From positions 1 to 52,477 of the forward strand of contig JAZDOA010000083.1 in the NCBI GenBank assembly GCA_043799175.1: 52,477 bases of DNA. Direction: 5' to 3'. Source of the stretch: Pseudomonadota bacterium (GTDB lineage Bacteria > Desulfobacterota > JAZDOA01). A program made the translations under genes and the position numbers. This document shows positions 1 to 46,065 of the stretch, in pieces; position 1 is the stretch's first letter, and each line of letters opens with the position of its first letter. The notes beneath the pieces were generated by a model that worked only from the letters and a program-made list of their open reading frames with translations, had not been told where the DNA came from and did not search any database.

Positions 1-108
<108 letters not shown>

Positions 109-239
109 TTGTTATTTCTGTTAGTTAAATACTAACAGGCAACAATCCTAGGTCAATCTCAAAGTTAGAGATCTACTATTTAGTTTTTAAAGGTCAAAAG
201 GGCAGCTATGGCCATTGAACGAAGTCCAGTGGCCAAAGC

Positions 240-316
<77 letters not shown>

Positions 317-366
317 TAATACGTAACAAATAAATATTAGGATAATTTAATTAGAAAGATCGACTG

Positions 367-442
367 GGGGGTATAGCTCAGTTGGGAGAGCACCTGCCTT
401 GCACGCAGGGGGTCAGCGGTTCGAGCCCGCTTACCTCCACCA
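367..442 (+). tRNA. tRNA-Ala (anticodon UGC), CCA encoded
   Basis: GGGGGTATAGCTCAG...CTTGCAC loop; G3:U70 wobble pair present in acceptor stem; GGTTCGAGC T-arm. Confidence 0.95.
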
Positions 443-528
443 GGGAGAAATAAAGTATATATAAATTTGAAACACATTCTTCAACATTTTTGTTCAAGAT
501 GTTCTTTGATAATTAAATAAGGTTTTAT

Positions 529-3542
<3,014 letters not shown>

Positions 3543-3602
3543 ATACTTTGCGTTTCAGCGGCAATCAGAAAGCACACAGACCTATTTGTCCAGATGACTT
3601 TT

Positions 3603-3718
3603 TTCGGTGGCGATGGCGAAGGGGTCGCACTCGTTCCCATCCCGAACACGGAGGTTAAGCCCTTCAGCGCCGATGGTACTGCGTTGGTGACGACGTGGGA
3701 GAGTAGGACGCCGCCGAA
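3603..3718 (+). rRNA. rrf: 5S rRNA
   Basis: Helix I TTCGGTGGCG / CGCCGCCGAA; conserved CCCGAACACGGAGGTTAAGC and GGGAGAGTAGGACGCCGCC blocks. Confidence 0.9.
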
Positions 3719-3731
3719 AAATCTTATAAAA

Positions 3732-12961: not shown

Positions 12962-14059
12962 ATGGGCGAGCGGCGCCTTGATGACAGGTATTTCGCGTTG
13001 CCGGCTGAACGCCTCCGGGAGATGGTCTCGGCCCTGATGGAGGACCGCCCGGTCTACGGGCCGGTGGCCAAGAGCGCGCAAAGCGGGATACCCGAAGACA
13101 CCCCCTTCTGGGTTTACAGCCGGCTGCAATTGGCCGGGCAACTGGCCCTGCACTTTGATGTCACCATTATGCCCCCCAAAAAGCTCTTCTTCCCGCCGGA
13201 GGAGCCGATCCTGGAGTACGATTTCGCCGGCTGGGGGCGCCCCATTCTGCACGAGGGGCCGTTTGTGGTCTTCGGGGTGCATCCCTACGATCTGACGGCC
13301 CTGGGGCAGCTCGACAAAGTCTTCAACGACCGCTACCCCGATGCCTGGTATCTGGCCCGGCGGCGTGACGCGCTCCTGGTGGGGGTGGACCCCGTCCAGG
13401 TGGCCCCCCACTCGTTCTGGGCCTCGATGGACACGGCCTCGACCACTACCTTCGACCTCATGCTCACCGACATCGGCGCCGGTGGCAGCGCCTTGTATGT
13501 CGTCGAGGTTGGCAGCCCCAAGGGAGCGGAGGCCCTGGAGCGCTTCGCCCAGGCCGAGCCGGCGAGTTCGGGAGAGTTGGCCGCCAGAGACGAGGTCAGG
13601 TCGGCGATACGGGAGAAGTCCTTGCGGCACGGCCTCAGGTTCGACGTGCGCGAGCTGCCTGGGTTGCTGCCCAAGGTCATGGACTCCGTGATCTGGGACG
13701 AGAAGGCCCGCACCTGCTACTCCTGCGGCACCTGCAACCTGGTCTGCCCCACCTGCTACTGCTTCGACCTCCGAGATGAGGTCCGTCTGGACCTGACCGG
13801 CGGTCAGCGCCTCCGCCGCTGGGACGGCTGCCAGCTCGAGGACTTTGCCCTGATCGGGGCCTGCAACTTCCGGCCGCTCAAAGTGAGCCGCTATCGCCAC
13901 CGCCTGCTTCGCAAGGGGCAGTATCTGTACGAACGCTATGGCGACATTGCCTGCGTGGGCTGCGGGCGCTGCTCCAGCCAGTGCCTGCCCAATATCGCCG
14001 ACCCGGTGGACGTCTACAACCGCCTCCACGATGAGGCGAAGGCCAGGGGGCTGATATGA
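12962..14059 (+). CDS. [NiFe] hydrogenase group 3b-like beta subunit (Fe-S, HydB/AsrA-like)
   Basis: Ferredoxin-type clusters CYSCGTCNLVCPTCYC and CVGCGRCSSQC; first gene of four overlapping genes. Confidence 0.8.
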   Translation: MGERRLDDRYFALPAERLREMVSALMEDRPVYGPVAKSAQSGIPEDTPFWVYSRLQLAGQLALHFDVTIMPPKKLFFPPEEPILEYDFAGWGRPILHEGPFVVFGVHPYDLTALGQLDKVFNDRYPDAWYLARRRDALLVGVDPVQVAPHSFWASMDTASTTTFDLMLTDIGAGGSALYVVEVGSPKGAEALERFAQAEPASSGELAARDEVRSAIREKSLRHGLRFDVRELPGLLPKVMDSVIWDEKARTCYSCGTCNLVCPTCYCFDLRDEVRLDLTGGQRLRRWDGCQLEDFALIGACNFRPLKVSRYRHRLLRKGQYLYERYGDIACVGCGRCSSQCLPNIADPVDVYNRLHDEAKARGLI

Positions 14060-14895
14060 ACAGCGATACAGCCGTGCATCTGCTGCCCCGGCCCGCGGTG
14101 GTGGAAGAGGTCCGCAGCCTCACCGGCTGCGAAAAGCTCTTCCGGCTGCGCCCGGAGGACGGAGTGCCCCTGGGCCACCTCCCCGGTCAATGGGTGCAGG
14201 TGTCCATTTTTGGGGTGGGGGAGGCGCCCATCTCGATCAGCTCCGCCCCCGATGGCCAGGCGGCCTTCGAGATCTGTGTGCGCGGCGTGGGTAATCTCAC
14301 CAGGGGGCTGCACAGCCTGAAGGCGGGAGAGCGGGTGGGCATCCGCGGCCCGTATGGGTCGCACTATCCGGTGGAGGAGGCCCGAGGCAAGGATCTGTTG
14401 TGCGTGGCCGGCGGTCTGGGGCTGGCGCCTCTGCGGAGCTTCATTCAGTATGTCCTGGCCCACCGCGCCGACTACGGGCGCCTCATTGTCTTTTACGGGG
14501 CACGTACCCCGACAGACCGTCTCTTTGCCGACGAGCTGCACCGCTGGGCCGCCGATCCGGCGGTGGAGTTCCTGGAAACGGTGGATATGTGCGCCCCAGG
14601 CCAGACCTGGAGTGGCAGAGTCGGCCTCATAACTAGGCTCTTCCCGGAAGTGGTGCTGGACGCGCCGAACACCTACATGACCTGCGTCGGTCCGCCCGTA
14701 ATGTACCGCTTCGTGGTGGCCTCGGCCACGGCGCTGGGCATACCCGAGGGGCAGATATTCATGTCGCTGGAGCGGCGCATGCGCTGCGGCATAGGCCTGT
14801 GCGGCCACTGCCAGATGGATAACGTCTATGTCTGCCAGCGGGGCGCGGTGTTCCGCTACGCGGACGTGAAGAATATAGAGGAAGCCTTGTCATGA
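14056..14895 (+). CDS. Hydrogenase gamma subunit (FAD/NAD(P)-binding, 2Fe-2S)
   Basis: Ferredoxin-reductase-like fold with C-terminal CGIGLCGHCQ cluster motif; ATGA overlap with upstream gene. Confidence 0.8.
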   Translation: MNSDTAVHLLPRPAVVEEVRSLTGCEKLFRLRPEDGVPLGHLPGQWVQVSIFGVGEAPISISSAPDGQAAFEICVRGVGNLTRGLHSLKAGERVGIRGPYGSHYPVEEARGKDLLCVAGGLGLAPLRSFIQYVLAHRADYGRLIVFYGARTPTDRLFADELHRWAADPAVEFLETVDMCAPGQTWSGRVGLITRLFPEVVLDAPNTYMTCVGPPVMYRFVVASATALGIPEGQIFMSLERRMRCGIGLCGHCQMDNVYVCQRGAVFRYADVKNIEEALS

Positions 14896-15653
14896 GCATG
14901 CGGGAGACGAAAAAACCCACCGTCGCCGTGTTCGACTTCGCCGGTTGCGGCGGAGACCAGTTGCAGTTGGCTAATCTCGAGGAGGAGCTGCTTACCCTCA
15001 CCGGCCAGATAGAGATGGTAAGCTGGCGAGAGGGGATGACGCCGGAGGTTGAGCCGGAGCACTACGATATCGCCCTGGTGGAAGGTTCCATAACCCGCCG
15101 CTCCGACGAGGCGCGCCTCAAGAAGATACGCGAGAGCTGCAAGACCCTGGTGGCCCTGGGCTCCTGCGCCACCATTGCGGGCATCAACGCCCTGAAGAAC
15201 TTTCAGGATCCCGAGCGGGTGCGCCGCTACGTCTACGGCGAGGCCGCCCTCTGGTATGAAACCTACGCCGCCAGGCCCCTGCGCGACGTGGTCAAGGTAG
15301 ACGCCAACGTTTATGGCTGCCCCATCATGACTTATGATTTCCTGCGGGTCTTCAAGGAGCTGCTTTTGGGCAAGAAGCCCTTCGATCCCAACTACCCCGT
15401 CTGCGTCGATTGCAAGCTGGCCGAGAACGTCTGCGTCTACGGCAAGGGAATGTGGTGCATGGGGCCGGTTACCCGGGCCGGCTGCCGGGCGGTGTGCGTC
15501 TCGGAGGGCAGCATCTGCTGGGGCTGCCGCGGTATGGTGGACCACCCCAATGCCGATGCCCAGCGTGAGGTGCTGGCCGCCCACGGCCTCGGGATTCGGG
15601 ACGTTATCGACAAGTTTCGCCTCTACTTCGGCACCCGGAGGGCTGCGGATTGA
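14892..15653 (+). CDS. [NiFe] hydrogenase small (delta) subunit
   Basis: NuoB/20-kDa-like N-terminus FDFAGCGGDQ, multiple Cys ligands; overlapping start and stop. Confidence 0.85.
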   Translation: MSMRETKKPTVAVFDFAGCGGDQLQLANLEEELLTLTGQIEMVSWREGMTPEVEPEHYDIALVEGSITRRSDEARLKKIRESCKTLVALGSCATIAGINALKNFQDPERVRRYVYGEAALWYETYAARPLRDVVKVDANVYGCPIMTYDFLRVFKELLLGKKPFDPNYPVCVDCKLAENVCVYGKGMWCMGPVTRAGCRAVCVSEGSICWGCRGMVDHPNADAQREVLAAHGLGIRDVIDKFRLYFGTRRAAD

Positions 15654-16939
15654 AGCGCGACGTAAATATCGAGGTCCACCACGTCACCAGGGTGGAAGGG
15701 CACGGCTCGCTCCACGCCGAAATCCGCGACGGCCGCATAACACACTGCGATTGGCGGGTGGTTGAGGCCCCCCGCTTCTTCGAGGCCATGGTCCGGGGCC
15801 GTACCTGGGAGGAGATGCACCATATCGTCGCCAGGATCTGTGGCATCTGCTCCATCGGCCACACCCTGGCCTCCATCAAGGCCACGGAGAGCGCCTTCGG
15901 CATAACCGTCTCGGAGCAGACCCTTGCGCTGCGCAAACTGGCCCTCCATGGCGAAAACCTGCAGAGCCATGTCCTGCACCTGGGCTATCTGGTGCTGCCG
16001 GACCTGAGCCGCACGTCCTCGGTGTTGCCCCTGGCCGAGAGCAGACGTGACGAGCTGCTGGCAATCATGCGGCTTCACCGGCTGGCCAATGAACTTAGCG
16101 GTCTCATAGGCGGCCGGACGACTCATCCCCTGCGCCTCATTCCTGGGGGCATGGCCAAGCTGCCCAGCGAGACCGAGCTGCGGGAGATGACGGCGCGCCT
16201 GCGGGCCGCCCTGCCCGATCTGTGGGCCGTGACCCGTTTCCTCAAGACCCTCGGCGTGGAGTTTATTGACTACGAGCGCCCGACGGAATACGTGGCCCTG
16301 ACCTCTCGGGGGGAGTATGCCCTCTATGACGGGCGCATTGGTTCCAGCGACGGGGGCAGTTGGCCCGTGGCCGAGTACCGCGCCGTTTCCAACGAGTACG
16401 ACGTGCACCAGTCCACCGCCAAGTACTGCAAACACAACCGGGAGTCCTACATGGTGGGGGCCCTGGCCCGTTTCAACCTCAACCAGGGGCAACTGAGCCC
16501 GCAGGCCGCCGAGGCGGCCCGTTTCCTGGGGCTGGCGGCCCCGAGTCACCGCCCCTTCGACAACAACCTGGCCCAGCTCGTGGAGTGCTTTCATAACGTG
16601 GAGGATGGTATCCGGCTGGCGGAGGAGTTGCTGGGCGCCGGCCTCCGGCTCGAGGAGGCCAAGGTGACGCCCCTGGCCGGACGCGGCGTGGGTTCGGTGG
16701 AAGTCCCTCGGGGCGTGCTCTTCCATGACTACGCATACGACGAAAACGGCCGTTGCCTGGGCTGCAATATTGTCATCCCCACCAACCAGAACCATGCCAA
16801 CCTGGCCCTTGATCTGCAGGGCTACCTGCCGCGGCTGCTCGATCTGGAGGAGGATGAAATCAAGCGCCGCCTCCAGATGCTCATCCGGGCCTACGACCCT
16901 TGCATCTCCTGCTCCACCCACCTGATCGTGCGCAAGTGA
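15650..16939 (+). CDS. [NiFe] hydrogenase large (alpha) subunit
   Basis: N-terminal RICGICSIGH and C-terminal DPCISCSTH Ni-Fe ligand motifs, followed by only 5 residues (LIVRK). Confidence 0.9.
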   Translation: MKRDVNIEVHHVTRVEGHGSLHAEIRDGRITHCDWRVVEAPRFFEAMVRGRTWEEMHHIVARICGICSIGHTLASIKATESAFGITVSEQTLALRKLALHGENLQSHVLHLGYLVLPDLSRTSSVLPLAESRRDELLAIMRLHRLANELSGLIGGRTTHPLRLIPGGMAKLPSETELREMTARLRAALPDLWAVTRFLKTLGVEFIDYERPTEYVALTSRGEYALYDGRIGSSDGGSWPVAEYRAVSNEYDVHQSTAKYCKHNRESYMVGALARFNLNQGQLSPQAAEAARFLGLAAPSHRPFDNNLAQLVECFHNVEDGIRLAEELLGAGLRLEEAKVTPLAGRGVGSVEVPRGVLFHDYAYDENGRCLGCNIVIPTNQNHANLALDLQGYLPRLLDLEEDEIKRRLQMLIRAYDPCISCSTHLIVRK

Positions 16940-17554: not shown

Positions 17555-18721
17555 ATGGCTCGAAGATCGTGGACGTACCGCCGCCGTTGTGTCGCCTTAG
17601 TCCTCGTGTGGCTGGCGACCCTTCTGTTCCCCGGGCTGCTCCAGGCCAAGCTCCCCATTACTTCCAAGGCCTGCAAGGCCTGCCACACCATGCACAACAT
17701 CGAGAATAACCAACTGGTGGTCGCGGGAGGGTCGCCCAAGAATCTGTTAAAAAACAGCTGCGTTGGCTGCCACTCCAGCGCGGGTAAGGAAACTATTAGC
17801 GCGGTGGGCAATGTTCCCATCGTGTTCAACACGGACAAGCAGCCCACCCAGCCTCTGGCGGGTGGCAATTTCTGGTGGGTGGTAAATAAAGGTAACGAGT
17901 ACGGCCACAACGTCGCTCCCATCTGCTACAAGGACACCATAACCGCCCCAGGCGGCCAGAATGTCTCCTGCACCGATTCGGCCAACACCTGCCACAATAC
18001 CCTCGCCAATACCACGCAGTTCACGGTAGGCCAGAACGGCTGCAAGGCCTGCCATATGTCAATCAAACATCACCAGGCGAACAAGGCCTTCTGTGGCCTC
18101 TGGGGCCACGGCGGAGTCGACAAGGCTACCGATACCAAAAGCAAGGATTACGTCATCGGCTGGGCAGTGGCTGATTGGGAGCAAAACGCCAAATCTGACT
18201 CCCACAACGAATACAAGGGGGTAGGTGACGTTACCGGGGATTACGACCCCACAAAGGGGAAGGACAGTGACTGTCTGGGGAATAAGCAGACCATCACCGC
18301 CTTCTGTCTCGGCTGCCACCCCAACATGCACCGCAAGTACAGGGCATTGACTTTCGACGATGGTTCCAATGGCTATACTTGCTGGCTGATTCACCCCGTG
18401 GACTGCTATCTCGAGGAAACCGGCGACCCTGATACGCCGAGCGCTGACCAGGATTTCAAGGACTATACCAAGTACAATCCTCAGGTGCCGGTGGCCCGCG
18501 ATTGGGCCGAGAGTTCCTTCTGGGAATGCAGTAGTAACGTCGCTTTCAGCGACGTTGTAATGTGCCTGTCTTGCCACCGGGGGATGGCTTCTGAGTACCC
18601 CCACCTCCTGCGCTGGAAATACGACGAAATATATCAGCAGCCGGTGGCTCCGGCCAAAGATACGGTTAATCCCACCACGGGCGGCTGCTGTGTCTGTCAC
18701 ACCGCCAAGTGCAAGTCCTGA
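17555..18721 (+). CDS. Secreted multihaem c-type cytochrome, six CxxCH, OmcS-like
   Basis: Signal peptide; CKACH, CVGCH, CKACH, CLGCH, CLSCH, CCVCH plus one CX6CH; blocks resembling G. sulfurreducens OmcS (CHTMHN, GGNFWWV, GHNV, TAPGG, CLSCHR, C-terminal CxxCHxAK); RBS GGAGGTGG. Confidence 0.8.
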   Translation: MARRSWTYRRRCVALVLVWLATLLFPGLLQAKLPITSKACKACHTMHNIENNQLVVAGGSPKNLLKNSCVGCHSSAGKETISAVGNVPIVFNTDKQPTQPLAGGNFWWVVNKGNEYGHNVAPICYKDTITAPGGQNVSCTDSANTCHNTLANTTQFTVGQNGCKACHMSIKHHQANKAFCGLWGHGGVDKATDTKSKDYVIGWAVADWEQNAKSDSHNEYKGVGDVTGDYDPTKGKDSDCLGNKQTITAFCLGCHPNMHRKYRALTFDDGSNGYTCWLIHPVDCYLEETGDPDTPSADQDFKDYTKYNPQVPVARDWAESSFWECSSNVAFSDVVMCLSCHRGMASEYPHLLRWKYDEIYQQPVAPAKDTVNPTTGGCCVCHTAKCKS

Positions 18722-28265: not shown

Positions 28266-28549
28266 TTTAACCCCCTGCCAAAGGATTCCCGCCCTCCGCG
28301 CCGAGGCCGCTCTTGGCTGTGGCGTCATGGTCCGTTGGGCTTCAGTTCCCAGGCCAAGTTGTTGCAAGAAGAGTTCCAAGACAGGCCAAGAAGAGTTTCG
28401 CGTTCCATAGACCAGCCTCGCCGAGTCGCTGTCGGGAGACGGTGTTCGAAATTAAATGTAACAGATTATTTTTACTGATTGGTAGAATAAAAATTATTGA
28501 CATCGCTGCCGGCCCGCGCTACGCTCCTTCTTTAGCGTGGGGGGGGGGC

Positions 28550-29443
28550 GTGGAACGGACCGGAGCCGAGCAAGCCGACGCAAAATCTGGCGGCCAGACC
28601 GAGAGCGGGGTGCTCGTCAGGCTGCGCGGGGCTTTGCCTTCCCTGAATCGGGCCGCCCGCCAGGTGGCGGATTTCATTCTCTCGGACCCTGAACGGGTCA
28701 TCCGTCTTTCCGTCAGCGAGGTGGCCATCCAAGCCAGGGTGAGTGATGCCACCGTGGTGCGCCTGGCCCGCCTCATAGGCCTTCGCGGCTACCAGGACCT
28801 CAAGATCACCGTGGCCCGCGATCTCGTCTCCCCGCTGGACAGCCTGCTTGAAGATCTCGAGGCGGAAGACCCCCCGGACGCGGTCCTGCGCAAAGTTTTC
28901 GCCGCCAATGCGCGCTGCCTGCAAGATACCCTGCGGGTGCTTGACCCCGCTGAGGTTGCCCGGGCGGCCACGCTGCTCGGGCGCGCGCGCAGGGTTCTGG
29001 TGATAGGGGTAGGCACCTCGGCGCCCAACGCCCACGACGCCGCCAACAAGCTCTTTCGGTTGGGGCTGAGTTGCGAGGCGGAGACCGACGGTCATCTTCA
29101 GCTCATGAAGGCGGCCTTGCTGGCCAGGGAAGACTGCGTGCTGGCCATCAGCCACTCCGGCTCCACCAAGGATCCCATCGAGACCCTGCGGGTGGCGGCC
29201 GAGCGAGGGGCGGCCACCATCTGTATCACCAACAATTCGCTTTCGCCCATAACCAAGGTGGCCAGAGTGCGGCTGGTGACGGCCTCGCGGGAGACCATGT
29301 ACCGCTCCGAGGCCATGAGCTCCAGGGTGGCCCAGGCCACCATTATTGATGCCTTGTTCACCCTCGTGGCCATGGCCGACCACAACCGGAGCCGACACCA
29401 CATCAAGCTTATCGAGGACGCCATCGTGGTGAAACAGTACTGA
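28550..29443 (+). CDS. RpiR/MurR-family transcriptional regulator (HTH_6 + SIS phosphosugar-binding domain)
   Basis: N-terminal [15 protein letters not shown] region; SIS motif [11 protein letters not shown]...ISHSGSTKD. No in-frame ATG; GTG at 28550 or 28610 is the likely start. Confidence 0.8.
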
Positions 29444-29462
29444 AGGCAAAAAGGTACAAGCC

Positions 29463-30098
29463 TTGAACGACATCGACCTTCGTTCCTACGTATTTCTGGA
29501 CAGCCTTCAGCCCCAGTTGGCTTCTTTCATGGGCACCACGGCCCACGGTTTCCTGCCGGTGCCGGGCGTGGCCTCGCTCTGGATCGAAACCGCTCCGGGG
29601 CTGGTCATCAACCGCCTGATGGACGTCGCCCTCAAGGCCACCGGCTGCCAGCCGGCGGTGCAGGTGGTGGAGCGGGCCTATGGGCTGTTGGAGGTTCACG
29701 ACCTGGACAAGGGCAAGGTGCTGGCGGCGGGGCAGGCGGTGCTGAGCTACCTGGGGGCGGAAGAGAGCTCGCGCCACAAGCCTAGGGTGGTTTCCTCCGA
29801 GATCATCCGCGGGGTGGAGGCCTACCAGTGTCAGCTCATCAACCGCGGACGCCGGGGCAGCATGATCCTGCCCGGCGAATCGTTGCTCATCCTGGAGACG
29901 GTGCCCGCCACCTACGTCGCCATCGGCTGCAACGAGGCCGAGAAGGCAGCCCGGATCAAGCTCAACGAGCTCAAGCCCTACGGGGCCTTCGGGAGGCTAT
30001 ATATGTCCGGGCCGGAGGCGGAAATCGACGCCGGGCGCGAGGCGGCCCTGGCCGTGCTGGGCGCCATGTCCGGCCAGGAATTGCCCGCCAGGCACTAA
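29463..30098 (+). CDS. BMC-T shell protein (tandem BMC domains; resembles the double-stacking CsoS1D/CcmP/Haliangium T2-T3 class)
   Basis: Two BMC-like units (LWIETAPG...DVALKAT...; LLILETVPA...NEAEKAA...); N-terminal [17 protein letters not shown] block; TTG start. Confidence 0.75.
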
Positions 30099-30131
30099 GT
30101 TTCAACATACCGTACCAAGGAGGAAAGAAAT

Positions 30132-30473
30132 ATGCCTGAAGCCTTAGGCATGATCGAAACAAAGGGATTCGCGGCCATGGTCGAGGCGGCCGACGCCATG
30201 GTGAAGGCGGCCAGGGTGGAGCTGGTCGGATACGAAAAGGTGGGCGGTGCCTACGTGACGGCCATCGTCCGGGGCGACGTGGCGGCCGTGAAGGCGGCCA
30301 CCGAGGCCGGGGCGCGCAGCGCGGAGCGCGTGGGCGAGCTCATAGCGGTCCACATCATACCGCGGCCCCACCTCAACCTCGACCTGGTGCTGCCGCTGGG
30401 CCGCAAGGCCGAGGCCGAGCAGGAGGGCGGCAGGGCCGCCGGCCAAAGCTCCGGCACCCAGGGGCCTCGGTAA
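30132..30473 (+). CDS. BMC-H hexamer shell protein (PduA/EutM-like) with repeat-derived C-terminal tail
   Basis: [24 protein letters not shown]...[13 protein letters not shown] canonical BMC domain; RBS AAGGAGGAAAG; last ~16 codons and the stop lie in repeat B. Confidence 0.92.
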
Positions 30474-30579
30474 AGAGCCGGGGCGGCAGGGCCGCCAGCC
30501 AATCGCCGGCACCCAGGAGCCTTGGTAAAGCCCGGCCAGTCTTCGAGGGTGCCGGTTACCTGTCGGCGTTGCCGACAGG
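30427..30579. repeat. Two tandem copies of repeat B (period ~56 bp) ending in hairpin CCTGTCGGC-GTT-GCCGACAGG
   Basis: GGCGGCAGGGCCGCCGGCCAAAGCTCCGGCACCCAGGGGCCTCGGTAAAG / GGCGGCAGGGCCGCCAGCCAATCGCCGGCACCCAGGAGCCTTGGTAAAG; the first copy is inside the BMC-H CDS. Confidence 0.85.
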
Positions 30580-30850
30580 GTGTGGGTTCCAGGCCGCCCT
30601 CTTTGAGTGGATGAAGATACTTCCGAGGTATGTGAGGGCGGAATTTGCCCGGCGCGGCTCGCGCCCGACAGGGCGTGGTTGCAGGCCGCCCTCTCTAAGT
30701 GGATGAAGATACTTCCGAGGTATGTGAGGGCGGAATTTGCCCGGCGCGGCTCGCGCCCGACAGGGCGTGGTTGCAGGCCGCCCTCTCTGAGTGGATGAAG
30801 ATACTTCCGAGGTATGTGAGGGCGGAATCTGCCTGGCGCGGCTCGCGCCC
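30574..30850. repeat. Tandem direct repeat, 3 units of 92-93 bp (variant of repeat A)
   Basis: Unit starts at 30574, 30667 and 30759. Units 2 and 3 differ at only a few positions. Each holds an inverted repeat GCCGCCCTC...GAGGGCGG and the hairpin GGCGCG-GCT-CGCGCC. Confidence 0.95.
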
Positions 30851-30928
30851 AGGGCCGCCGGCCAAAGCTCCGGCACCCGTGAAACTCGGTAAAGACCGGA
30901 ACACCTTAGAGGGTGCCGGTTGCCTGTC
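30851..30928. repeat. Repeat B copy flanking the tandem array on the right
   Basis: AGGGCCGCCGGCCAAAGCTCCGGCACCCGTGAAACTCGGTAAAGACCGG...AGAGGGTGCCGGTTGCCTGTCGGCGG. Confidence 0.8.
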
Positions 30929-30976
30929 GGCGGCTGGTACTTGGTTGCAGTAATTCCTAACGCGGATCTTGGGTGT

Positions 30977-31049
30977 TTCCGTTCGTGCTGATGTATAGAA
31001 GCACGAACACCAGTGGTTCGCCCTTCGATACCTCAGGACGAACGGTTTT
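30977..31049 (+). promoter_or_regulatory. Repeat C copy 2: four GTTCG/CGAAC segments able to form alternative hairpins, last one followed by TTTT (attenuator-like)
   Basis: CCGTTCGTGC...GCACGAAC...GGTTCGCC...GGACGAACGGTTTT, about 80 nt upstream of the BMC-P start. Confidence 0.35.
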
Positions 31050-31125
31050 GAAGCCAGGTTAATGGGTTACGCAACTAGGTACTAGACGCCTCGCGCCTTT
31101 AGCCGGAGATTTAGAGGATGGTTTT

Positions 31126-31416
31126 ATGCAACTGGGCCTGGTGGTGGGCACTTTGGTGGCCACCCGCAAGGATGAGCGCCTGAGTGGGCTGAAGTTCCTG
31201 GTGGTCAGGGACCTGGGGCTTGATATGAGCCAGTCGGGTTCGGGGGTGGTGGCCGCCGATGCCGTGGGCGCGGGGCGGGGCGAGGTGGTGTTGTATGCCA
31301 CGGGCAGCTCCGCCCGGCAGACGGCCCTGACCGACGGCAAGCCCGTTGACGCGGCCATCATGGCCATAGTGGACAGCTTCGACGTCGACGGCGTCGAGAA
31401 ATACCGGAAGGGATAG
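31126..31416 (+). CDS. BMC-P pentamer vertex protein (EutN/CcmL family), paralog 1
   Basis: [27 protein letters not shown]... typical EutN N-terminus; 96 aa. Confidence 0.9.
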
Positions 31417-31421
31417 CCGCG

Positions 31422-32867
31422 GTGGCCGAGCGGGCGGCGGGCATCAGCCCGGAGCTGATCAATGAAGTGGTGGAGCGGGTGGTCGTAAGGCTCAAGGGCG
31501 GCCCCTGTTCCTGCCGGGGGCAGCAGGCGGGGGCGCCTGAGGTGGCCGAGGACAGCGGCAGCTTCAAGGTGCTGGACGATGCCGTGGCGGCGGCCCGCGA
31601 GGCGCAGGCGGCCCTCGATGCCGGCGGGCTGGATCTGCGGCGGGTCGTGGTGGCCTCTATCCGCGAGGTCTGCCTGCCCGAGGTGGAGCGCCTGGCCCGG
31701 CTGGCGGTGGAGGAGGCGGGCTACGGGCGGGTGGAAGACAAGATCTTCAAGAACCGCCTGGCGGTGAGCAAGACGCCGGGCTGCGAGGTTCTGCGGTCTC
31801 GCGCGGTCTCGGGAGACCACGGCCTGACCCTCACCGAGCGTGCTCCCTGGGGCGTGATTGGCTCCATAACCCCGGTAACCAACCCTACCGAGACCATAAT
31901 CTGCAATTCCATAGGCATGATAGCCGCGGGCAACGCCGTGGTGTTCAACCCCCACCCCGCCGCCGCCAAGGTCTCCAACCTGGTCGTGCACCTGGTGAAC
32001 GAGGCCTCGCGGCGGGTGGGCGGGCCGCCCGATCTGGCCACTTCCACCGTAAGCCCAACCATCGAGAGCGCCCAGGCCCTCATGCGCCACCCCGAGGTCA
32101 ACCTGCTGGTTGTCACTGGGGGGCCGGGGGTGGTGAAGGCCGCCTTGGGCAGTGGGAAGAGGGCCATCTGTGCCGGTCCTGGCAACCCCCCCGCCGTGGT
32201 GGACGAGACGGCCGACCTGGCCCAGGCGGCGCGCGACTTGGTGCGCGGCGCCTCGCTGGACAACAACATCGTCTGCGTGGTGGAGAAGGTCATTATTGTC
32301 GTGGAACAGGTGGCCGGCCGCCTCATGGCGCTGCTGGAGGAGGCCGGCGCGCGCCGGCTGAGCCCCGAGGAGCTGCTCAGGCTGACCCCGCTGCTCTTCG
32401 AGGGCGACCCCGCCAGGCACCTGCCCAACCGCCGCATGGTGGGCAAGAATACGGAGGTCATATTGAAGGCCGCGGGCCTGGCCTGCCCGCCCGAGGCGCG
32501 CCTGGCCTTTGCCGAGTGCCCGGCGGACCACCCCCTGGTGCTCACCGAGCAGCTCATGCCCGTGCTTCCCCTGGTGCGGGTTCGCAACGTTGAGGAGGCC
32601 ATAAGGCTGGCCGTGAAGGTCGAGGGCGGCAGACGGCACACGGCCGTCATGCACTCGCGCGACATCGCCAGTCTCTCGGCCATGGCCCGCGCCTGCAACG
32701 CCTCGATCTTCGTCAAGAATGGCCCTTCCTTCGCGGGCCTGGGGCTGGAGGGCGAGGACTATTGCTCTTTCTCCATCGCCAGCCCCACCGGAGAGGGCCT
32801 CACCAACGCCACGCATTTTACCCGGGAGCGCCGCTGCACCCTCAAAGACTACTTCAGGATTATCTGA
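31422..32867 (+). CDS. CoA-acylating aldehyde dehydrogenase (EutE/PduP-like) with N-terminal encapsulation peptide
   Basis: GVIGSITPVTNPTET, NPHP, catalytic CAGPGNPPAVVDETAD; amphipathic SPELINEVVERVVVRLK then a low-complexity linker; GTG start. Confidence 0.9.
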   Translation: MAERAAGISPELINEVVERVVVRLKGGPCSCRGQQAGAPEVAEDSGSFKVLDDAVAAAREAQAALDAGGLDLRRVVVASIREVCLPEVERLARLAVEEAGYGRVEDKIFKNRLAVSKTPGCEVLRSRAVSGDHGLTLTERAPWGVIGSITPVTNPTETIICNSIGMIAAGNAVVFNPHPAAAKVSNLVVHLVNEASRRVGGPPDLATSTVSPTIESAQALMRHPEVNLLVVTGGPGVVKAALGSGKRAICAGPGNPPAVVDETADLAQAARDLVRGASLDNNIVCVVEKVIIVVEQVAGRLMALLEEAGARRLSPEELLRLTPLLFEGDPARHLPNRRMVGKNTEVILKAAGLACPPEARLAFAECPADHPLVLTEQLMPVLPLVRVRNVEEAIRLAVKVEGGRRHTAVMHSRDIASLSAMARACNASIFVKNGPSFAGLGLEGEDYCSFSIASPTGEGLTNATHFTRERRCTLKDYFRII

Positions 32868-33457
32868 TGGAGCCGGCACTGGGCCTGATAGAAACCAAGA
32901 CCATAGTGGCGGGCATCGAGCTGGCCGACGCCCTGTGCAAGCGGGCCCCGGTGGTTCTGCGGCGCCTGTTCACCCTTACCCCCGGCAAGATGATAATCGT
33001 CTTCACCGGAGACGAGGCCCCGGTGGAGGAGAGCTGGCGCCGGGGGCTGGAGGTCGCGGGAGAGGCCGTGCTCGACTCGCTGTTTCTGCCGGCGGTGGAA
33101 CCACGGGTGGCCGGCGCGCTGTTCTCGGGCGGCCCACGGTGCCCAGTGGGGCCAGGAGAGGCCCTGGGCGCGGTGGAGACCCTGTCCGTGGCCTCCTGCG
33201 TGGTGGCGGCGGATGTCGCGCTGAAGGCGGCACGGGTGGATCTGATCGAACTTCGGCTGCGGCGGGAGCTGGGCGGCAAGGGTTACTTTCTCATCTGTGG
33301 CTCGCACGGGGACACCGAGGCGGCCCTGGAGGCGGCCGCGCTGCGGCTGGCGGAGGTTGACCCCCCCATGCTGGCGGGCACCCTGCTCATCCCCCGGCCG
33401 CACGACGACATGCTGCGCGAGCTTCTGGCCGCCAACGAGGCATCGGCATGGAGCTAG
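32867..33457 (+). CDS. BMC-T shell protein (tandem BMC domains, PduT / Haliangium T1-like)
   Basis: ALGLIETKTIVAGIELADALCKRA and ALGAVETLSVASCVVAADVALKAA domain starts; ATGA overlap with the AldDH stop; start at MEPAL inside the longer ORF. Confidence 0.85.
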   Translation: MEPALGLIETKTIVAGIELADALCKRAPVVLRRLFTLTPGKMIIVFTGDEAPVEESWRRGLEVAGEAVLDSLFLPAVEPRVAGALFSGGPRCPVGPGEALGAVETLSVASCVVAADVALKAARVDLIELRLRRELGGKGYFLICGSHGDTEAALEAAALRLAEVDPPMLAGTLLIPRPHDDMLRELLAANEASAWS

Positions 33458-33729
33458 GACGGGTCAGGGGCAGACTGGTCGCCACCCAGCGCGCCGACAA
33501 CCTCGACGGGGTGAAGTTCCTGATCGTCCAGCCGCTCAATGAGCGCCTGGATCCCGTCGGGAGCCCGCTGGTGGCCGTGGATGGGGTCGCCCAGGCCGGC
33601 CCGGGAGATCTGGTCTACTGGGTCAAGGGCCGCGAGGGGGCCATGGTGTTGCCAGAACATTTCGCCTGCGTGGACGCCGGCATAGCCGGCATAGTGGACG
33701 CGGTGGATCTGGAAGAGGAGAAGTCCTGA
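33448..33729 (+). CDS. BMC-P pentamer vertex protein, paralog 2
   Basis: MELGRVRGRLVATQRADNLDGVKFLIVQP...; 93 aa; overlaps upstream gene by 10 nt. Confidence 0.9.
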   Translation: MELGRVRGRLVATQRADNLDGVKFLIVQPLNERLDPVGSPLVAVDGVAQAGPGDLVYWVKGREGAMVLPEHFACVDAGIAGIVDAVDLEEEKS

Positions 33730-34007
33730 TGCAGGCCGCAAGGGTTTTGGGGACAGTCACCTCTACGGTGAAACACCAGGCCTTCCGCGGGCTCAAGCTG
33801 TTGGTCGTGCAGCCCTTCTTCGGCGGCAGGCCCCAGGGGCGCAGCTTCCTGGCCGTCGACTTCGCCCAGGCGGGCGTGGGAGACACCGTGCTGGTGGTGC
33901 GCGAAGGCAGCTCCACCCGGCAGTTGCTGGGGCGGGAACTGGCCCCGGTGCACGCGGCCGTGGTGGGCATCGTGGACGGTATTTTCCCCCCCGAGGAGGA
34001 GTCATGA
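33729..34007 (+). CDS. BMC-P pentamer vertex protein, paralog 3
   Basis: MQAARVLGTVTSTVKHQAFRGLKLLVVQP...; 92 aa; TGATG overlap. Confidence 0.9.
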   Translation: MQAARVLGTVTSTVKHQAFRGLKLLVVQPFFGGRPQGRSFLAVDFAQAGVGDTVLVVREGSSTRQLLGRELAPVHAAVVGIVDGIFPPEEES

Positions 34008-34801
34008 GGCCGGAGCACGAAATCCGCAAGGACATCGTCCTCATCTGCCGCCGCCTGAGCGAGCGGGGCTTCATCGCCGCCTCAGACGGCAACGTCAGCG
34101 TGCGTCTCCAGGGGCCGGGCGGCGCCGGGCGCCTGCTCATCACCCCCTCGGGGCTGCACAAGGGCTTCATCAAGGAAGACGACCTGGTGCTGTGCGATAT
34201 GTCCGGCAAGGCCCTGCGGGGCCGGGGCAAGCCCTCGTCCGAAATCCTCATGCACCTTCAGGCCTACCAGCTCCGGCCGGACGTCAATGCCGTGGTCCAT
34301 GCCCACCCGCCCTTGGCCACGGCCTTCACCATCGCCAAGGTCTCCCTGGCCAGGTGCGTGCTGCCCGAGGTGGTGATTACCATGGGCACCATTCCCACCA
34401 CCGCCTACGCCACCCCCTGCACCGCCGAGGGGCCGGAGGTCATAAAGGACCTGATCGGCGACCACGACGCCCTGGTGCTGGACCGCCACGGCACCCTTAC
34501 CGTGGGCAAGGATCTCTTCGAGGCCTACGGCAAGTTGGAGAAGATCGAACACACCGCCCAGGTCACCCTGGCCGCCCGCATGCTGGGTAACCTCACCCTG
34601 CTTAACGAATCGCAGTTGGCCCGCCTGGAGCATCTGGCCCCGGAGCGGGTGCGTCGCGCCGCCGCCGACCCCGCCTGCCTCGGCTGCGGGGCCTGCCAGC
34701 CGGCGGACGCCCCGGCAGACCGCGAGGCCATAGGCAGGTTGGTGGCCCAAGAGCTGAAGCGGGTACTGGGCGGTCGGGACTCCGGCACCCATGAACCTTA
34801 G
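34004..34801 (+). CDS. Class II aldolase/adducin-family protein (FucA/RhaD-like) with C-terminal encapsulation peptide
   Basis: ASDGNVSVR, SSEILMH, VVHAHPP zinc-ligand region; C-terminal extension with amphipathic REAIGRLVAQELKRVLGG; ATGA overlap. Confidence 0.9.
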   Translation: MRPEHEIRKDIVLICRRLSERGFIAASDGNVSVRLQGPGGAGRLLITPSGLHKGFIKEDDLVLCDMSGKALRGRGKPSSEILMHLQAYQLRPDVNAVVHAHPPLATAFTIAKVSLARCVLPEVVITMGTIPTTAYATPCTAEGPEVIKDLIGDHDALVLDRHGTLTVGKDLFEAYGKLEKIEHTAQVTLAARMLGNLTLLNESQLARLEHLAPERVRRAAADPACLGCGACQPADAPADREAIGRLVAQELKRVLGGRDSGTHEP

Positions 34802-39154: not shown

Positions 39155-41315
<2,161 letters not shown>

Positions 41316-43902: not shown

Positions 43903-43985
43903 GGAGGGATGGCCGAGTGGTTTAAGGCGGCGGTCATGAAAACCGTTGACCGAAAGGTCCGTGGGTTCGAATCCCTCTCCCTCCG
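43903..43985 (+). tRNA. tRNA-Ser (anticodon UGA as read), atypical: A at position 33, U:U in T-stem, no encoded CCA
   Basis: Class II cloverleaf GGAGGGATGGCCGAGTGGTTTAAGGCG...; anticodon stem GCGGT/ACCGT; loop CATGAAA; variable arm GACC-GAAA-GGTC. Confidence 0.75.
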
Positions 43986-44000
43986 CTCGGAATTTATTAC

Positions 44001-44096
44001 GGAGAGATGGCCGAGTAGGTTTAAGGCGCTCGCCTGCTAAGCGAGTGTAGGGCCTTAAAAGTCCTACCGAGGGTTCGAATCCCTCTCTCTCCGCCA
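44001..44096 (+). tRNA. tRNA-Ser (anticodon GCU), CCA encoded
   Basis: GGAGAGATGGCCGAG...CTCGC-CTGCTAA-GCGAG; long variable arm; GAGGG-TTCGAAT-CCCTC. Confidence 0.92.
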
Positions 44097-44163: not shown

Positions 44164-45075
44164 ATGGCAGAGCAAATGAAAAGCGCTTTTCGTCCCGCCA
44201 CGCCGGTGACCAGCTTGTCTGTCGGCTCCGACGAGGCCCCGCAGGCCCCCGTGGGTATCACCGAGCTTGCCGCGCTGGCCAGACAGATCAGGAAAGACAT
44301 CCTGATAATGCTCAACAAGGCCAGGTCTGGCCATACGGGCGGCTCTCTGTCCGCCACTGACATCCTGGTTGCCCTGTTCTTCTCCAGGTTGCGCCACAAG
44401 CCCCGGAATCCCCGCTGGCCCGAGCGCGACCGCTTCGTACTGTCTAAGGGGCATGCCGCCCCCGCCTATTACGCGGTCCTTGCCCACTGTGGCTACTTCC
44501 CGCTCAGCCAGTTGCTCACCCTGCGCCAGATCGGCAGCTGCCTGCAGGGCCATCCGGACTGCATGCTGACCCCAGGGGTAGAGTGCTCCACCGGCTCGCT
44601 GGGCCAGGGTGTTTCGGTCGCGGTGGGTATGGCGTTGGGGCTCAGGCTCGACGCCAGGTCTTCCCGGGTGTACGCCCTGCTGGGCGATGGCGAGACCCAG
44701 GAGGGCCAGGTCTGGGAGGCGGTCATGTCCGCCGCCCACTACAGGCTCGATAACTTCTGCGCCATTGTGGACTGTAACGGGCTGCAGATCGACGGGCCGG
44801 TGCGTCAGATCATGAACGTCGAGCCCCTGGGGGCCAAGTTCCATGCCTTCGGCTGGCACGTGGTCGAAATCGACGGCCACGACATGGCCCAGATAGTCGA
44901 TGCCCTCAACGGCGCCGAGACCATCAAGGAGCGCCCGACGGCTATAATCGCCCACACCGTCAAGGGCAAGGGCGTTTCTCTCTTCGAGGACAAGGTGGCC
45001 TATCACGGGGTGGCGCCCACCGACGAAGAGCTGGCCCAAGCGCTTCAGGAACTCGACGCGGCTTCACTAAAGTAA
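44164..45075 (+). CDS. Transketolase, N-terminal (TPP-binding) subunit of a split enzyme
   Basis: [33 protein letters not shown] motifs; 303 aa. Confidence 0.9.
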
Positions 45076-45085
45076 GGAGGCGTTT

Positions 45086-46065
45086 GTGGCAGGCGAGGCT
45101 GTTCGCGACAGATATGGCAAGGTTTTGGCCAGGCTTGGCGAGACGAGGCCTGATATCGTCGTCCTCGATGCCGACCTGTCTGGGTCCACCAAGACCGAGG
45201 TCTTTGGGCGCCGGTTTCCCGAGCGCTTCTTCAACATGGGCATCGCCGAGCAGAACATGATCGGCGTGGCGGCCGGTCTGGCCCACACCGGCAGGGTGCC
45301 CTTCGCCTCCACCTTCGCCATTTTCGCCACGGGGAGGGCATGGGAGCAGGTCCGCCAGTCGGTTGCCTACTCGGCGGTCAACGTGAAGATCGTGGCCTCG
45401 CACGGGGGCGTTACCGTGGGGGACGACGGGGGTCGCACCAGGCGGTGGAAGACGTCGCCCTGATGCGCATTCTGCCCAATATGGTTGTCATAGTCCCGGC
45501 TGATGCCGTCGAGATGGAAAAGGTCATCGAGTGCATCGCCGACTACCGCGGTCCGGTCTACGTGCGCGGGGCGCGAATCAAGTTTCCCATCATCCACGAC
45601 CAGGACTACAAGTTCCAGATAGGCCGGGGGGATCTGCTGCGTGACGGACGGGACTTGGCCATGATCGCCTATGGTCTGATGGTCCACCACTGCCTGGAGG
45701 CCGCCGGGATTCTCGCCGCGCAAGGGCTGCAATGCCGGGTCATCAATATGTCCACTGTCAAACCACTGGACCAGGAAATGACCGTGGCCGCGGCGCGGGA
45801 ATGTGGGGCGGTGCTCACCTGCGAAGAGCACCTGATCTGCGGCGGGTTGGGCTCGGCGGTGGCCGAATGTCTGGGGGAGCACTGCCCGGTGCCCCTGGGC
45901 CGGGTGGGCATAACCGACAAGTTTGGAATTTCGGGGCCACCTGAGGCTCTGCTGGGTCATTTCAGGCTGCTGCCGGCCGACATTGCCGAGGCGGCGCAAC
46001 GCCTCCACGCTCGCAAGCCGAGACCCGGGGCGGTGGAACGCGCGCCGGCCCAAGGGGTCTCTTAG
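45086..46065 (+). pseudogene. Transketolase C-terminal (pyrimidine-binding) subunit, reading frame broken by a 1-nt frameshift
   Basis: ORF 45086-45463 (..[29 protein letters not shown]) continues in ORF 45340-46065 ([12 protein letters not shown]..). The junction is at the G5 run 45428-45432. RBS TAAGGAGG, GTG start. Confidence 0.85.

Follow-up and report, generated by a model that had tools for sequence, protein, structure and literature searches.

An RpiR-headed microcompartment locus resembling the HO type II and SPU5 loci

Gene content and organization of the locus

We analyzed a bacterial microcompartment (BMC) locus at positions 28550-34801 of contig JAZDOA010000083.1 (assembly GCA_043799175.1). 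The whole stretch of DNA that was analyzed, 52,477 nucleotides (nt), is called the window below. Open reading frame (ORF) calls combined with Pfam and NCBIfam searches gave nine intact genes, all on the + strand, in the order RpiR/SIS regulator, BMC-Tdp, BMC-H, BMC-P, CoA-acylating aldehyde dehydrogenase (AldDH), BMC-Ts, BMC-P, BMC-P, and class II aldolase. The features of the locus are as follows.

28485..28524, + strand: sigma-70-like promoter upstream of rpiR, with an A/T-rich tract, TTGACA, a 17-nt spacer, and TACGCT (upstream alignment)
28550-29443, + strand: RpiR/MurR-family regulator, first gene of the operon (HTH_6, E 2.6e-19; SIS, E 2e-22)
29463-30098, + strand: 211-aa BMC-Tdp, a CsoS1D/CcmP-like double-stacking tandem-BMC trimer by its matches (PDB 5v74; NCBIfam CcmP)
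30132-30473, + strand: BMC-H hexamer (PF00936, E 5e-30)
30474-31125, + strand: repeat-rich, strongly structured intergenic spacer (TRF, repeat search, RNA fold)
31126-31416, + strand: BMC-P pentamer, paralogue 1 (PF03319, E 6e-28)
31422-32867, + strand: CoA-acylating AldDH (PF00171; NCBIfam PRK15398)
32867-33457, + strand: 196-aa BMC-Ts, a PduT-like tandem-BMC trimer (two PF00936 domains)
33448-33729, + strand: BMC-P pentamer, paralogue 2 (PF03319, E 2e-21)
33729-34007, + strand: BMC-P pentamer, paralogue 3 (PF03319, E 8e-25)
34004-34801, + strand: class II (zinc) aldolase-family enzyme (PF00596, E 7.6e-46)

A preliminary description of the locus, written from the sequence, had named these gene families, and all of the identities were borne out by the family searches. 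The genes are co-directional, as it had said, but they number nine and not ten; its own list held nine, and the ORFs within 30474-31125 are readings of tandem repeats. It had also described the junctions as mostly overlapping. Along the operon the first four junctions are gaps of 19, 33, 652, and 5 bp and the last four are overlaps (-1, -10, -1, and -4 bp), so that half of the eight overlap. All nine ORFs are of normal length and are 66-97% identical to their orthologues in the sister loci, the close relatives that are described below.

We read the locus as one operon because its junctions are overlapping or short (the 652-bp spacer excepted), because its promoter is conserved in four loci, and because its ORFs are full length when compared with those of the sister loci. 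We are confident that this is a metabolosome operon of the HO/SPU family, HO being the type named after Haliangium ochraceum. The more specific reading, that the locus is a single operon for a catabolic BMC (metabolosome) of the HO type II/SPU5 group, with its own RpiR regulator and a conserved promoter, is likely.

Shell proteins

The shell genes comprise one BMC-H, a triplet of BMC-P, one BMC-Tdp resembling CsoS1D and HO-T2, and one PduT-like BMC-Ts; there were no additional shell genes in the 52-kb window. Searching the shell ORFs with hmmsearch, the check that the preliminary description had proposed, gave PF00936 or PF03319 matches for the others, but PF00936 did not detect the 211-aa protein at E<=0.01. 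Because PF00936 gives no match to a genuine Tdp, that search would wrongly fail this protein. Judged by its homologues, the 211-aa protein is clearly a double-stacking BMC-Tdp: it matches the H. ochraceum protein HO-5816/T2 (PDB 5v74) with an E value of 5e-81 and 64.7% identity over 201 residues, it matches the NCBIfam CcmP model with an E value of 1.4e-80, and the PDB search also returned CcmP, CsoS1D, and RMM Tdp proteins. The domain PF27545 (CsoS1D_N) is present in its homologues. The protein carries an E70-R71 pair at a position that we take to correspond to the gating residues of CcmP.

The BMC-H gene is the sole PF00936 hexamer gene. Its product has the motifs KAAR at residue 25 (in place of KAAN) and PRPH at residue 77, and it is 95-97% identical to the BMC-H of the sister loci, at a length of 113 aa versus 95-102 aa in the sisters. 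The three BMC-P paralogues are 39-41% identical to one another.

The 196-aa BMC-Ts matched PDB entries 3nwg (E 6e-32), PduT (3vcd, E 5.5e-29), and HO-T1 (5dih, E 1.4e-17). Its pore position is a Thr (TLTPGK), and the Fe-S-binding Cys of PduT-like proteins (CPGK) is gone. That Cys is kept in two more distant loci, at L014 5631-6179 (TCPGK, with a PduS homologue adjacent) and at L013 8728-9375 (VCPGK, no PduS seen). The clade to which the window belongs has Thr there and no PduS. Loss of PduS and loss of the pore Cys may thus go together.

Enzymes encoded and enzymes missing

The AldDH scored 621 bits against NCBIfam PRK15398 (cutoff, 403), has its catalytic Cys250 within CAGPGNPP, and matched best the BMC-associated AldDHs 5jfl and 4c3s in the PDB (E 1e-130 to 1e-126). 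Residues ~9-25 (ISPELINEVVERVVVRL) form an N-terminal amphipathic encapsulation helix that is followed by a variable linker; the helix pattern is kept in homologues from many phyla and the linker is not. The nearest named relatives, from Deltaproteobacteria, Myxococcales, Riflebacteria, and Planctomycetes, are 55-59% identical, and the closest of them are annotated as EutE type and come from SPU7-bearing lineages (Riflebacteria and Ozemobacter) and Myxococcales. Outside a clade known only from metagenomes, identity is at most about 63%, plus one partial alignment (80% of the query) at 64%.

The aldolase consists of a catalytic body (residues 1-~210), a Cys motif (C225-x2-C228-x2-C231), a variable linker, and a terminal amphipathic helix (residues 240-260). 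The HAHPP zinc site is at residues 99-103. In an alignment of 50 sequences, D28-G29-N30, S78-S79-E80, H99, H101, H162, C118, P121, and E122 are invariant, and the phosphate-binding motif T47-P48-S49-G50 is likewise conserved. The Zn-binding His triad, E80 (Glu73 of FucA), S78-S79, and D28-G29-N30 align with FucA residues. Because the zinc histidines, S-S-E, and the phosphate-binding D-G-N and T-P-S-G motifs are all conserved, the protein fits an enzyme acting on a phosphorylated ketose. At the position of FucA Tyr113 it has a Leu, with the invariant Glu122 two residues further on (CVLPE).

An AlphaFold2 (AF2) model of the aldolase, compared by Foldseek, gave TM scores of 0.86-0.89 (target normalised) at 27-30% sequence identity to FucA (the Escherichia coli and Streptococcus pneumoniae enzymes), to YgbL, and to DrdA, the 5-deoxyribose-disposal aldolase of Bacillus thuringiensis (6btd); L-ribulose-5-phosphate 4-epimerase was somewhat farther away. 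Given the 110 bits scored by the OtnC model, we take YgbL to be OtnC, the 3-oxo-tetronate-4-phosphate decarboxylase. The other NCBIfam scores were 116 bits for FucA_Meth, 106 for L-ribulose-5-phosphate 4-epimerase, and 93 for ribulose-1-phosphate aldolase; FucA models as a group gave 82-116 bits against cutoffs of 250-400. No specificity could be assigned on this basis: NCBIfam, the PDB sequence search, and AF2 with Foldseek left FucA, YgbL/OtnC, DrdA, and the epimerase equally distant. The preliminary description had called the substrate of the organelle open, and neither sequence nor fold comparison of the aldolase resolves it. The best aldolase match in a GTDB scan was 53% identical, and outside the metagenome-only clade identity was at most about 60%.

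The AF2 model has a mean pLDDT of 90, with low confidence at residues 221-240 and a block-mean pLDDT of ~80-85 over the helix at 240-260. This terminal helix (REAIGRLVAQELKRVLG, nt 34721-34783) is conserved in homologues and, from the model, is probably an encapsulation peptide (EP). With an N-terminal helix on the AldDH and a C-terminal helix on the aldolase, both enzymes are probably encapsulated cargo.

Between the aldolase body and the helix, in the flexible tail, lies a CxxCxxC triad (DPAC-LG-C-GA-C; nt 34676-34696). Of the 120 nearest homologue clusters, 110 have it, and in the 50-sequence alignment it varies little or not at all; among 150 diverse representatives clustered at 50% identity it was present in 15, and many of these representatives still end in an amphipathic helix. 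The accessible parts of the text and supplements of the BMC catalogue do not mention such a motif for HO or SPU5 aldolases. The triad may be a metal or Fe-S site. The idea that it substitutes for PduS was rejected, since the aldolase of L041, another of the more distant loci, has the motif in a locus that also carries PduS.

Pfam searches of most of the large ORFs in the window revealed no phosphotransacylase (PTAC), alcohol dehydrogenase (AlcDH), acyl or sugar kinase, isomerase, DERA, RpiB, or PduS, in agreement with the earlier observation that cofactor-recycling enzymes are not visible there. Searching the whole window by tblastn with DERA (three queries), RpiB, nucleoside phosphorylase (PNP), PduS, and phosphorylase sequences from related loci also found nothing.

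The enzyme content bears on the fucose/rhamnose organelle of Planctomycetes and Verrucomicrobia (PVM) (Erbilgin 2014; Axen 2014, PMC4207490), to which the locus had been likened. In an organelle of that kind, L-fuculose-1-phosphate or L-rhamnulose-1-phosphate would be cleaved to dihydroxyacetone phosphate (DHAP) and lactaldehyde, and the AldDH would form lactyl-CoA. Homologues of the aldolase are indeed labelled 'L-fuculose-phosphate aldolase' by the JGI pipelines, and FucA is among its best structural matches. However, the window has no DeoR regulator, acetate kinase, PTAC, or lactate/malate-type dehydrogenase, and no fucose or rhamnose isomerase, kinase, or transporter was present in the window or the sister loci. 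The identity to FucA, the scores far under the FucA cutoffs, and the replacement of Tyr113 place the aldolase in another subfamily; the BMC-T proteins are of HO type, the affinities of the Tdp and the AldDH lie with HO and SPU, and the companions of the cassette in the distant loci are DERA, RpiB, nucleoside phosphorylase, and PduS. A PVM-like organelle is very unlikely here.

Sister loci and more distant relatives

Close relatives of the locus were found only in metagenomes and metagenome-assembled genomes (MAGs), with AldDH and aldolase 67-80% identical to the window copies. Three independent full loci, L001, L003, and L037 (NCBI GCA_040961035.1), have the same nine genes, including rpiR. 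The aldolase is the only enzyme besides the AldDH that is retained in every member of this sister clade. All five sister loci with downstream sequence have two conserved genes after the aldolase, at the following positions.

L001, 13451-17021: genes after the aldolase
L003, 7218-10809: genes after the aldolase
L037, 10894-14524: genes after the aldolase
L039, 2524-4297: genes after the aldolase
L031, 483-1210: genes after the aldolase

One of these genes encodes a ~211-aa protein with an N-terminus (RRDLLDALDQLVKAV, then GSDEAQ) that resembles an encapsulation helix, and the second encodes a protein of ~360-380 aa. Neither was matched by Pfam or NCBIfam, and for the 211-aa family, the only one searched in this way, a PDB profile search was also empty. 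Three sister loci add a ~620-aa protein in which a butyryl-CoA:acetate CoA-transferase-like domain is fused to a Pat-like GNAT domain. Neither the 211-aa, ~360-aa, and ~620-aa genes nor remnants of them were found in the window. The locus had been described as compact, with nothing else in it; because these three sister-locus genes are absent from the window, that compactness is peculiar to this genome, and every sister locus with enough downstream sequence has two or more additional conserved genes beyond the aldolase. In the closest short metagenome fragment, L020, whose aldolase is 77% identical, the place of the 211-aa gene is taken by 457 bp of DNA (1059-1515) that contains repeats and looks noncoding.

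More distant relatives share a cassette with the order Tdp-H-P-AldDH-(PduS)-Ts-P-P, in which PduS is optional, and differ in what accompanies it.

L005, Phycisphaerales: cassette plus RpiB-DeoC fusion, with aldolase
L044, metagenome: cassette plus RpiB-DeoC fusion, without aldolase
L041, GCA_040960625.1: cassette plus PNP, RpiB, DeoC, and PduS, with aldolase
L014, "Cyanobacteria bacterium UBA8530": cassette plus DeoC and PduS, with aldolase
L013, Spirochaetales: cassette plus DeoR and a Glycos_transf_3 phosphorylase-like gene, with aldolase
L043, metagenome: cassette plus RpiR and PduS, without aldolase

The cassette is kept across phyla, and its partners are DERA/RpiB, the class II aldolase, both of these, or neither, which supports a common sugar-phosphate theme. 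These combinations suggest that HO and several SPU subtypes form one continuum. The companions in the distant loci are sugar-phosphate and nucleoside enzymes, and there were no fucose or rhamnose genes among them. Because the cassette is joined elsewhere to DERA, RpiB, nucleoside phosphorylase, and PduS, the most likely context of the organelle would be sugar-phosphate or nucleoside-derived carbon, as in SPU, and not fucose or rhamnose.

The same relatives raise the question of whether the locus encodes an SPU-type organelle for deoxyribose or ribose phosphate. An EP-tagged DERA, with or without RpiB, PTAC, and PduS, would then have its gene at another place in the genome, and the aldolase would be an accessory enzyme acting on triose- or pentose-phosphate side products. 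Loci that share both the cassette and the aldolase subfamily carry DERA (L005, L014, and L041), with RpiB in L005 and L041; the cassette also occurs with DERA/RpiB but no aldolase (L044) and with neither enzyme (L043). RpiR-family proteins classically control rpiB/als, and AlsR is the second-best NCBIfam model for the regulator in the window. According to the catalogue, some HO genomes have PF01791 genes with an EP that lie at distant sites (Sutter et al. 2021, PMC8217296). On the other side, homologues of DERA, RpiB, PNP, and PduS are missing not only from the 52-kb window but also from ~3-10 kb upstream and 3.6-10 kb downstream of the three full sister loci. The aldolase has its own encapsulation helix and, alone with the AldDH, is retained throughout the sister clade. 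Fructose-bisphosphate aldolases belong to PF01116, not PF00596. We therefore think it unlikely that the PF00596 enzyme has the downstream role that the SPU paper gives it, joining glyceraldehyde 3-phosphate (GAP) with DHAP into fructose-1,6-bisphosphate (Dwyer et al. 2024, PMC11585597), a role that is biochemically weak. On balance we consider an SPU-type organelle with a remote DERA rather unlikely.

Regulator, promoter, and the BMC-H/BMC-P spacer

The first gene of the operon had been called a phosphosugar-type RpiR regulator, and this identification held: an N-terminal HTH_6 domain and a C-terminal SIS domain both exceed the Pfam cutoffs. The best NCBIfam models were PRK11337 (204 bits), AlsR (185 bits), and HexR (171 bits), all under cutoff. 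The protein is 77-82% identical to its counterparts in L001, L003, and L037, and a shorter RpiR-family gene lies at the equivalent position in L043.

When the regions upstream of rpiR in the window, L001, L003, and L037 were aligned, AATAAAAATTATTGACA...GCGCTAnnCT was nearly invariant and the flanks were divergent. A consensus promoter scanner missed this promoter because its -10 hexamer matches at only 3 of 6 positions. In the promoter region (window 28440-28530) the A/T-rich tract contains, in all four loci, an imperfect inverted repeat, ATTTTTA-N11-13-TAAAAAT, which may serve as the operator of RpiR or as an UP element. The operon is probably transcribed as a single unit that RpiR autoregulates. 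Neither the leader nor the BMC-H/BMC-P spacer had an Rfam match at either threshold.

In the window, a spacer of 652 bp separates the BMC-H gene from the first BMC-P gene; the corresponding distance is only 22 bp in L037 and roughly 200-280 bp in L001 and L003. Within it, a tandem repeat of 3 x 92 bp lies at 30585-30860 (TRF: period 92, 3.0 copies, 95% matches), flanked by direct repeats of 46-68 nt (families D1-D4). Repeat D2 (30431-30476) supplies the last ~14 codons of the BMC-H gene, whose ORF is about 11-18 codons longer than those of the sisters. The spacer RNA has a strong predicted fold (z = -7.0) and no terminator-like site. The 92-bp repeat was not found again in the rest of the window, nor in the first 42 related loci. 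With the noncoding stretch in L020 also considered, variable repeat-rich junctions may be common in this lineage.

A repeat insertion of this kind, which expanded the spacer and rewrote the C terminus of BMC-H, together with the missing 211-aa, ~360-aa, and ~620-aa genes, is what one would see if the operon were a decaying or silent remnant. The state of the genes speaks otherwise. The nine ORFs are intact, of normal length, and well conserved with respect to the sister orthologues, the catalytic and metal-binding residues are retained, the promoter is conserved, and nothing in the spacer looks like a terminator. That the operon is a remnant is thus highly improbable.

Comparison with catalogued microcompartments

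In the BMC catalogue, HO type II loci have the order Tdp-H-P-AldDH-Ts fused with P-P-aldolase; 11 of the 41 HO loci are of type II, mostly from Deltaproteobacteria, and the types nearest to HO are SPU5 and SPU7 (Sutter et al. 2021, PMC8217296). The gene order in the window is identical. The likeness to H. ochraceum that the preliminary description had drawn is accordingly sound, the order being that of the H. ochraceum main locus plus its P-P-aldolase satellite and the Tdp being close to HO-5816. Further shared features are the single BMC-H, the divergent BMC-P triplet, a CsoS1D-like Tdp in the main locus, an N-terminal EP on the AldDH, the placing of a PF00596 aldolase and two of the BMC-P genes within the main locus, and the lack of PTAC and AlcDH; the host of the window also looks deltaproteobacterial. 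HO type II further has a second BMC-Tdp, of the CcmP clade, at a satellite locus; the 52 kb of the window hold no shell genes beyond those of the operon. Other features differ or may differ. By search scores the Ts of the window, a tandem-BMC protein, is closer to PduT-type structures (3nwg and 3vcd) than to HO-T1 (5dih). The operon is headed by an RpiR gene, and no RpiR or SIS term appears in the accessible parts of the catalogue text and supplements. Finally, the enzymes fall in the small metagenome-only clade.

SPU5 loci lack RpiB, carry DERA in only half of the cases, and have a PF00596 aldolase whose C terminus bears an EP (Sutter 2021; Dwyer et al. 2024, PMC11585597); their AldDH has its EP at the N terminus, their Tdp is CsoS1D-like, and their Ts is PduT-like (Sutter 2021, PMC8217296). 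The window shares with SPU and SPU5 the shell/AldDH cassette, the aldolase with its C-terminal EP, both kinds of BMC-T protein, and the lack of RpiB, and its more distant relatives carry DERA, RpiB, PNP, and PduS. In contrast to SPU loci, neither the window nor the sister loci have the signature DERA (PF01791), RpiB (PF02502) is absent from the window, and the window has no PduS and a Ts that lacks the Fe-S cysteine. The ACI (Acidobacteria) aldolase is, according to the catalogue, most similar to the HO and MIC3 aldolases (Sutter 2021, PMC8217296). ACI loci likewise have a PF00596 aldolase with a C-terminal EP beside a BMC-H and a BMC-P triplet, but their aldolases are 42-44% identical to that of the window, the aligned ACI example (L016) lacks CxxCxxC, and ACI has a hydroxyacid dehydrogenase, a satellite AldDH with a C-terminal EP, and another gene order.

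The preliminary description had called the locus the best candidate in the window for an uncharacterized metabolic organelle. The locus is uncharacterized, but its kind is not undescribed, since the gene order matches HO type II, bordering on SPU5, and the missing PTAC and AlcDH were already raised in 2014: the H. ochraceum-type loci with an 'incomplete core' were then taken to indicate that internal cofactor recycling is possibly not obligatory (Axen et al. 2014, PMC4207490). By gene order and family membership, the locus belongs to a catalogued kind of BMC whose function is open; it is not a new organelle type. The catalogue calls the function of HO enigmatic (Sutter et al. 2021, PMC8217296), and we found no literature on native HO function since 2021.

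Genomic surroundings

The genes on both sides of the operon are housekeeping or unrelated genes. On the upstream side are an rRNA operon, genes for haem synthesis, a cluster that resembles a NiFe hydrogenase, genes for polysaccharide export, GlgC, and a hypothetical ORF of 190 aa; on the downstream side are a TIGR03960/TIGR03936 radical-SAM fusion, RNase G, PurA, rubrerythrin, a split transketolase, and FtsEX. The next gene downstream, the radical-SAM fusion, is unrelated, as had been said. The promoter of its own that had been ascribed to it is less clear: by eye there is a weak TTGCGT-17-TATACT, and the promoter scan gave only a match on the minus strand.

The window begins inside the rRNA operon, whose 16S 3' end, tRNA-Ile(GAT), tRNA-Ala(TGC), 23S, and 5S genes occupy 1-3719. 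Four genes at 12962-16939 encode a Fer4_22 protein, an FAD/NAD-binding protein with a DHODB-type Fe-S domain, an Oxidored_q6 small subunit, and a NiFeSe_Hases large subunit; the cluster resembles a soluble group-3-type NiFe hydrogenase. This cluster, the rubrerythrin (40731-41315), and a protein with multihaem motifs (17555-18721) together hint that the organism lives anaerobically. The transketolase, a sugar-phosphate enzyme, is split into separate N- and C-terminal genes at 44164-46065, ~10 kb downstream of the operon and unlinked to it, with tRNA-Ser genes beside it at 43903-44096. The organism belongs to an uncultured lineage: its PurA has 74-80% identity to a small number of metagenome proteins, and identity to proteins from Deltaproteobacteria and Desulfobacterales MAGs is about 63%.

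Proposed mechanism and implications

In the mechanism that we propose, a phosphosugar would bind to the SIS domain of RpiR and derepress the operon. A phosphorylated ketose would enter the shell, probably through the gated pore of the Tdp, and the encapsulated zinc aldolase would cleave it to DHAP and a C2-C3 aldehyde (glycolaldehyde, acetaldehyde, or lactaldehyde). The co-encapsulated AldDH would then convert the trapped aldehyde, NAD+, and CoA to acyl-CoA and NADH. With PTAC, AlcDH, and PduS missing from the locus and no Fe-S site in its Ts, NAD+/NADH and CoA/acyl-CoA would have to be exchanged across the shell, with the Tdp pores as candidates, or recycled by proteins encoded elsewhere, for which the sister-locus genes are candidates. 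We lean somewhat toward a core pathway of aldolase followed by AldDH. The substrate could be a pentulose-1-phosphate (yielding glycolaldehyde), a 5-deoxypentulose-1-phosphate (acetaldehyde), or a 6-deoxyhexulose-1-phosphate (lactaldehyde), and to none of these classes taken singly would we give more than a modest chance.

Several points weigh against this interpretation of the locus. No experiment exists for any HO-type organelle. The specificity of the aldolase cannot be assigned from its sequence, every NCBIfam equivalog score being well under cutoff. Given the replacement of FucA Tyr113 and the invariant Glu122 two residues further on, the enzyme may instead carry out decarboxylase, epimerase, or dehydratase chemistry and release no free aldehyde, and the published SPU scheme places the PF00596 enzyme downstream. 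The effector of RpiR and the function of the EPs are inferred only. The structured 652-bp spacer could uncouple BMC-H from the genes downstream of it. Moreover, because the three sister-locus downstream genes are absent, the window copy may depend on loci that lie out of view.

A bolder proposal would make the locus a metabolosome for which its two enzymes suffice, without any need for PTAC, AlcDH, or PduS. The CxxCxxC triad would be an Fe-S or redox metal site at the inner surface of the shell, coupling NADH/acyl-CoA turnover or shell gating to the cytosol. The clade headed by RpiR, in which two conserved proteins (the N-terminus of one being EP-like) and the CoA-transferase-like/GNAT fusion occur, would be a distinct new BMC subtype of which the window holds the minimal form. 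We regard this as unlikely; if true, the Cys-triad redox center would be a solution to cofactor handling undescribed for any microcompartment.

The shells of the HO type serve as the main model for microcompartments, both in structural work and in engineering, and their native substrate and the recycling of NAD+ and CoA in them are unsolved. The locus described here leaves the overall picture of HO unchanged. Two kinds of feature go beyond those reported so far, namely the Cys triad that the aldolase carries in its tail and the additional genes conserved among the sister loci; the link to RpiR is a modest addition. It is also a very compact, regulator-linked version of the system, with one promoter, one phosphosugar-type sensor, and two tagged enzymes, so that the ligand of RpiR and the substrate of the aldolase could reveal the role of the whole HO/SPU5 group.

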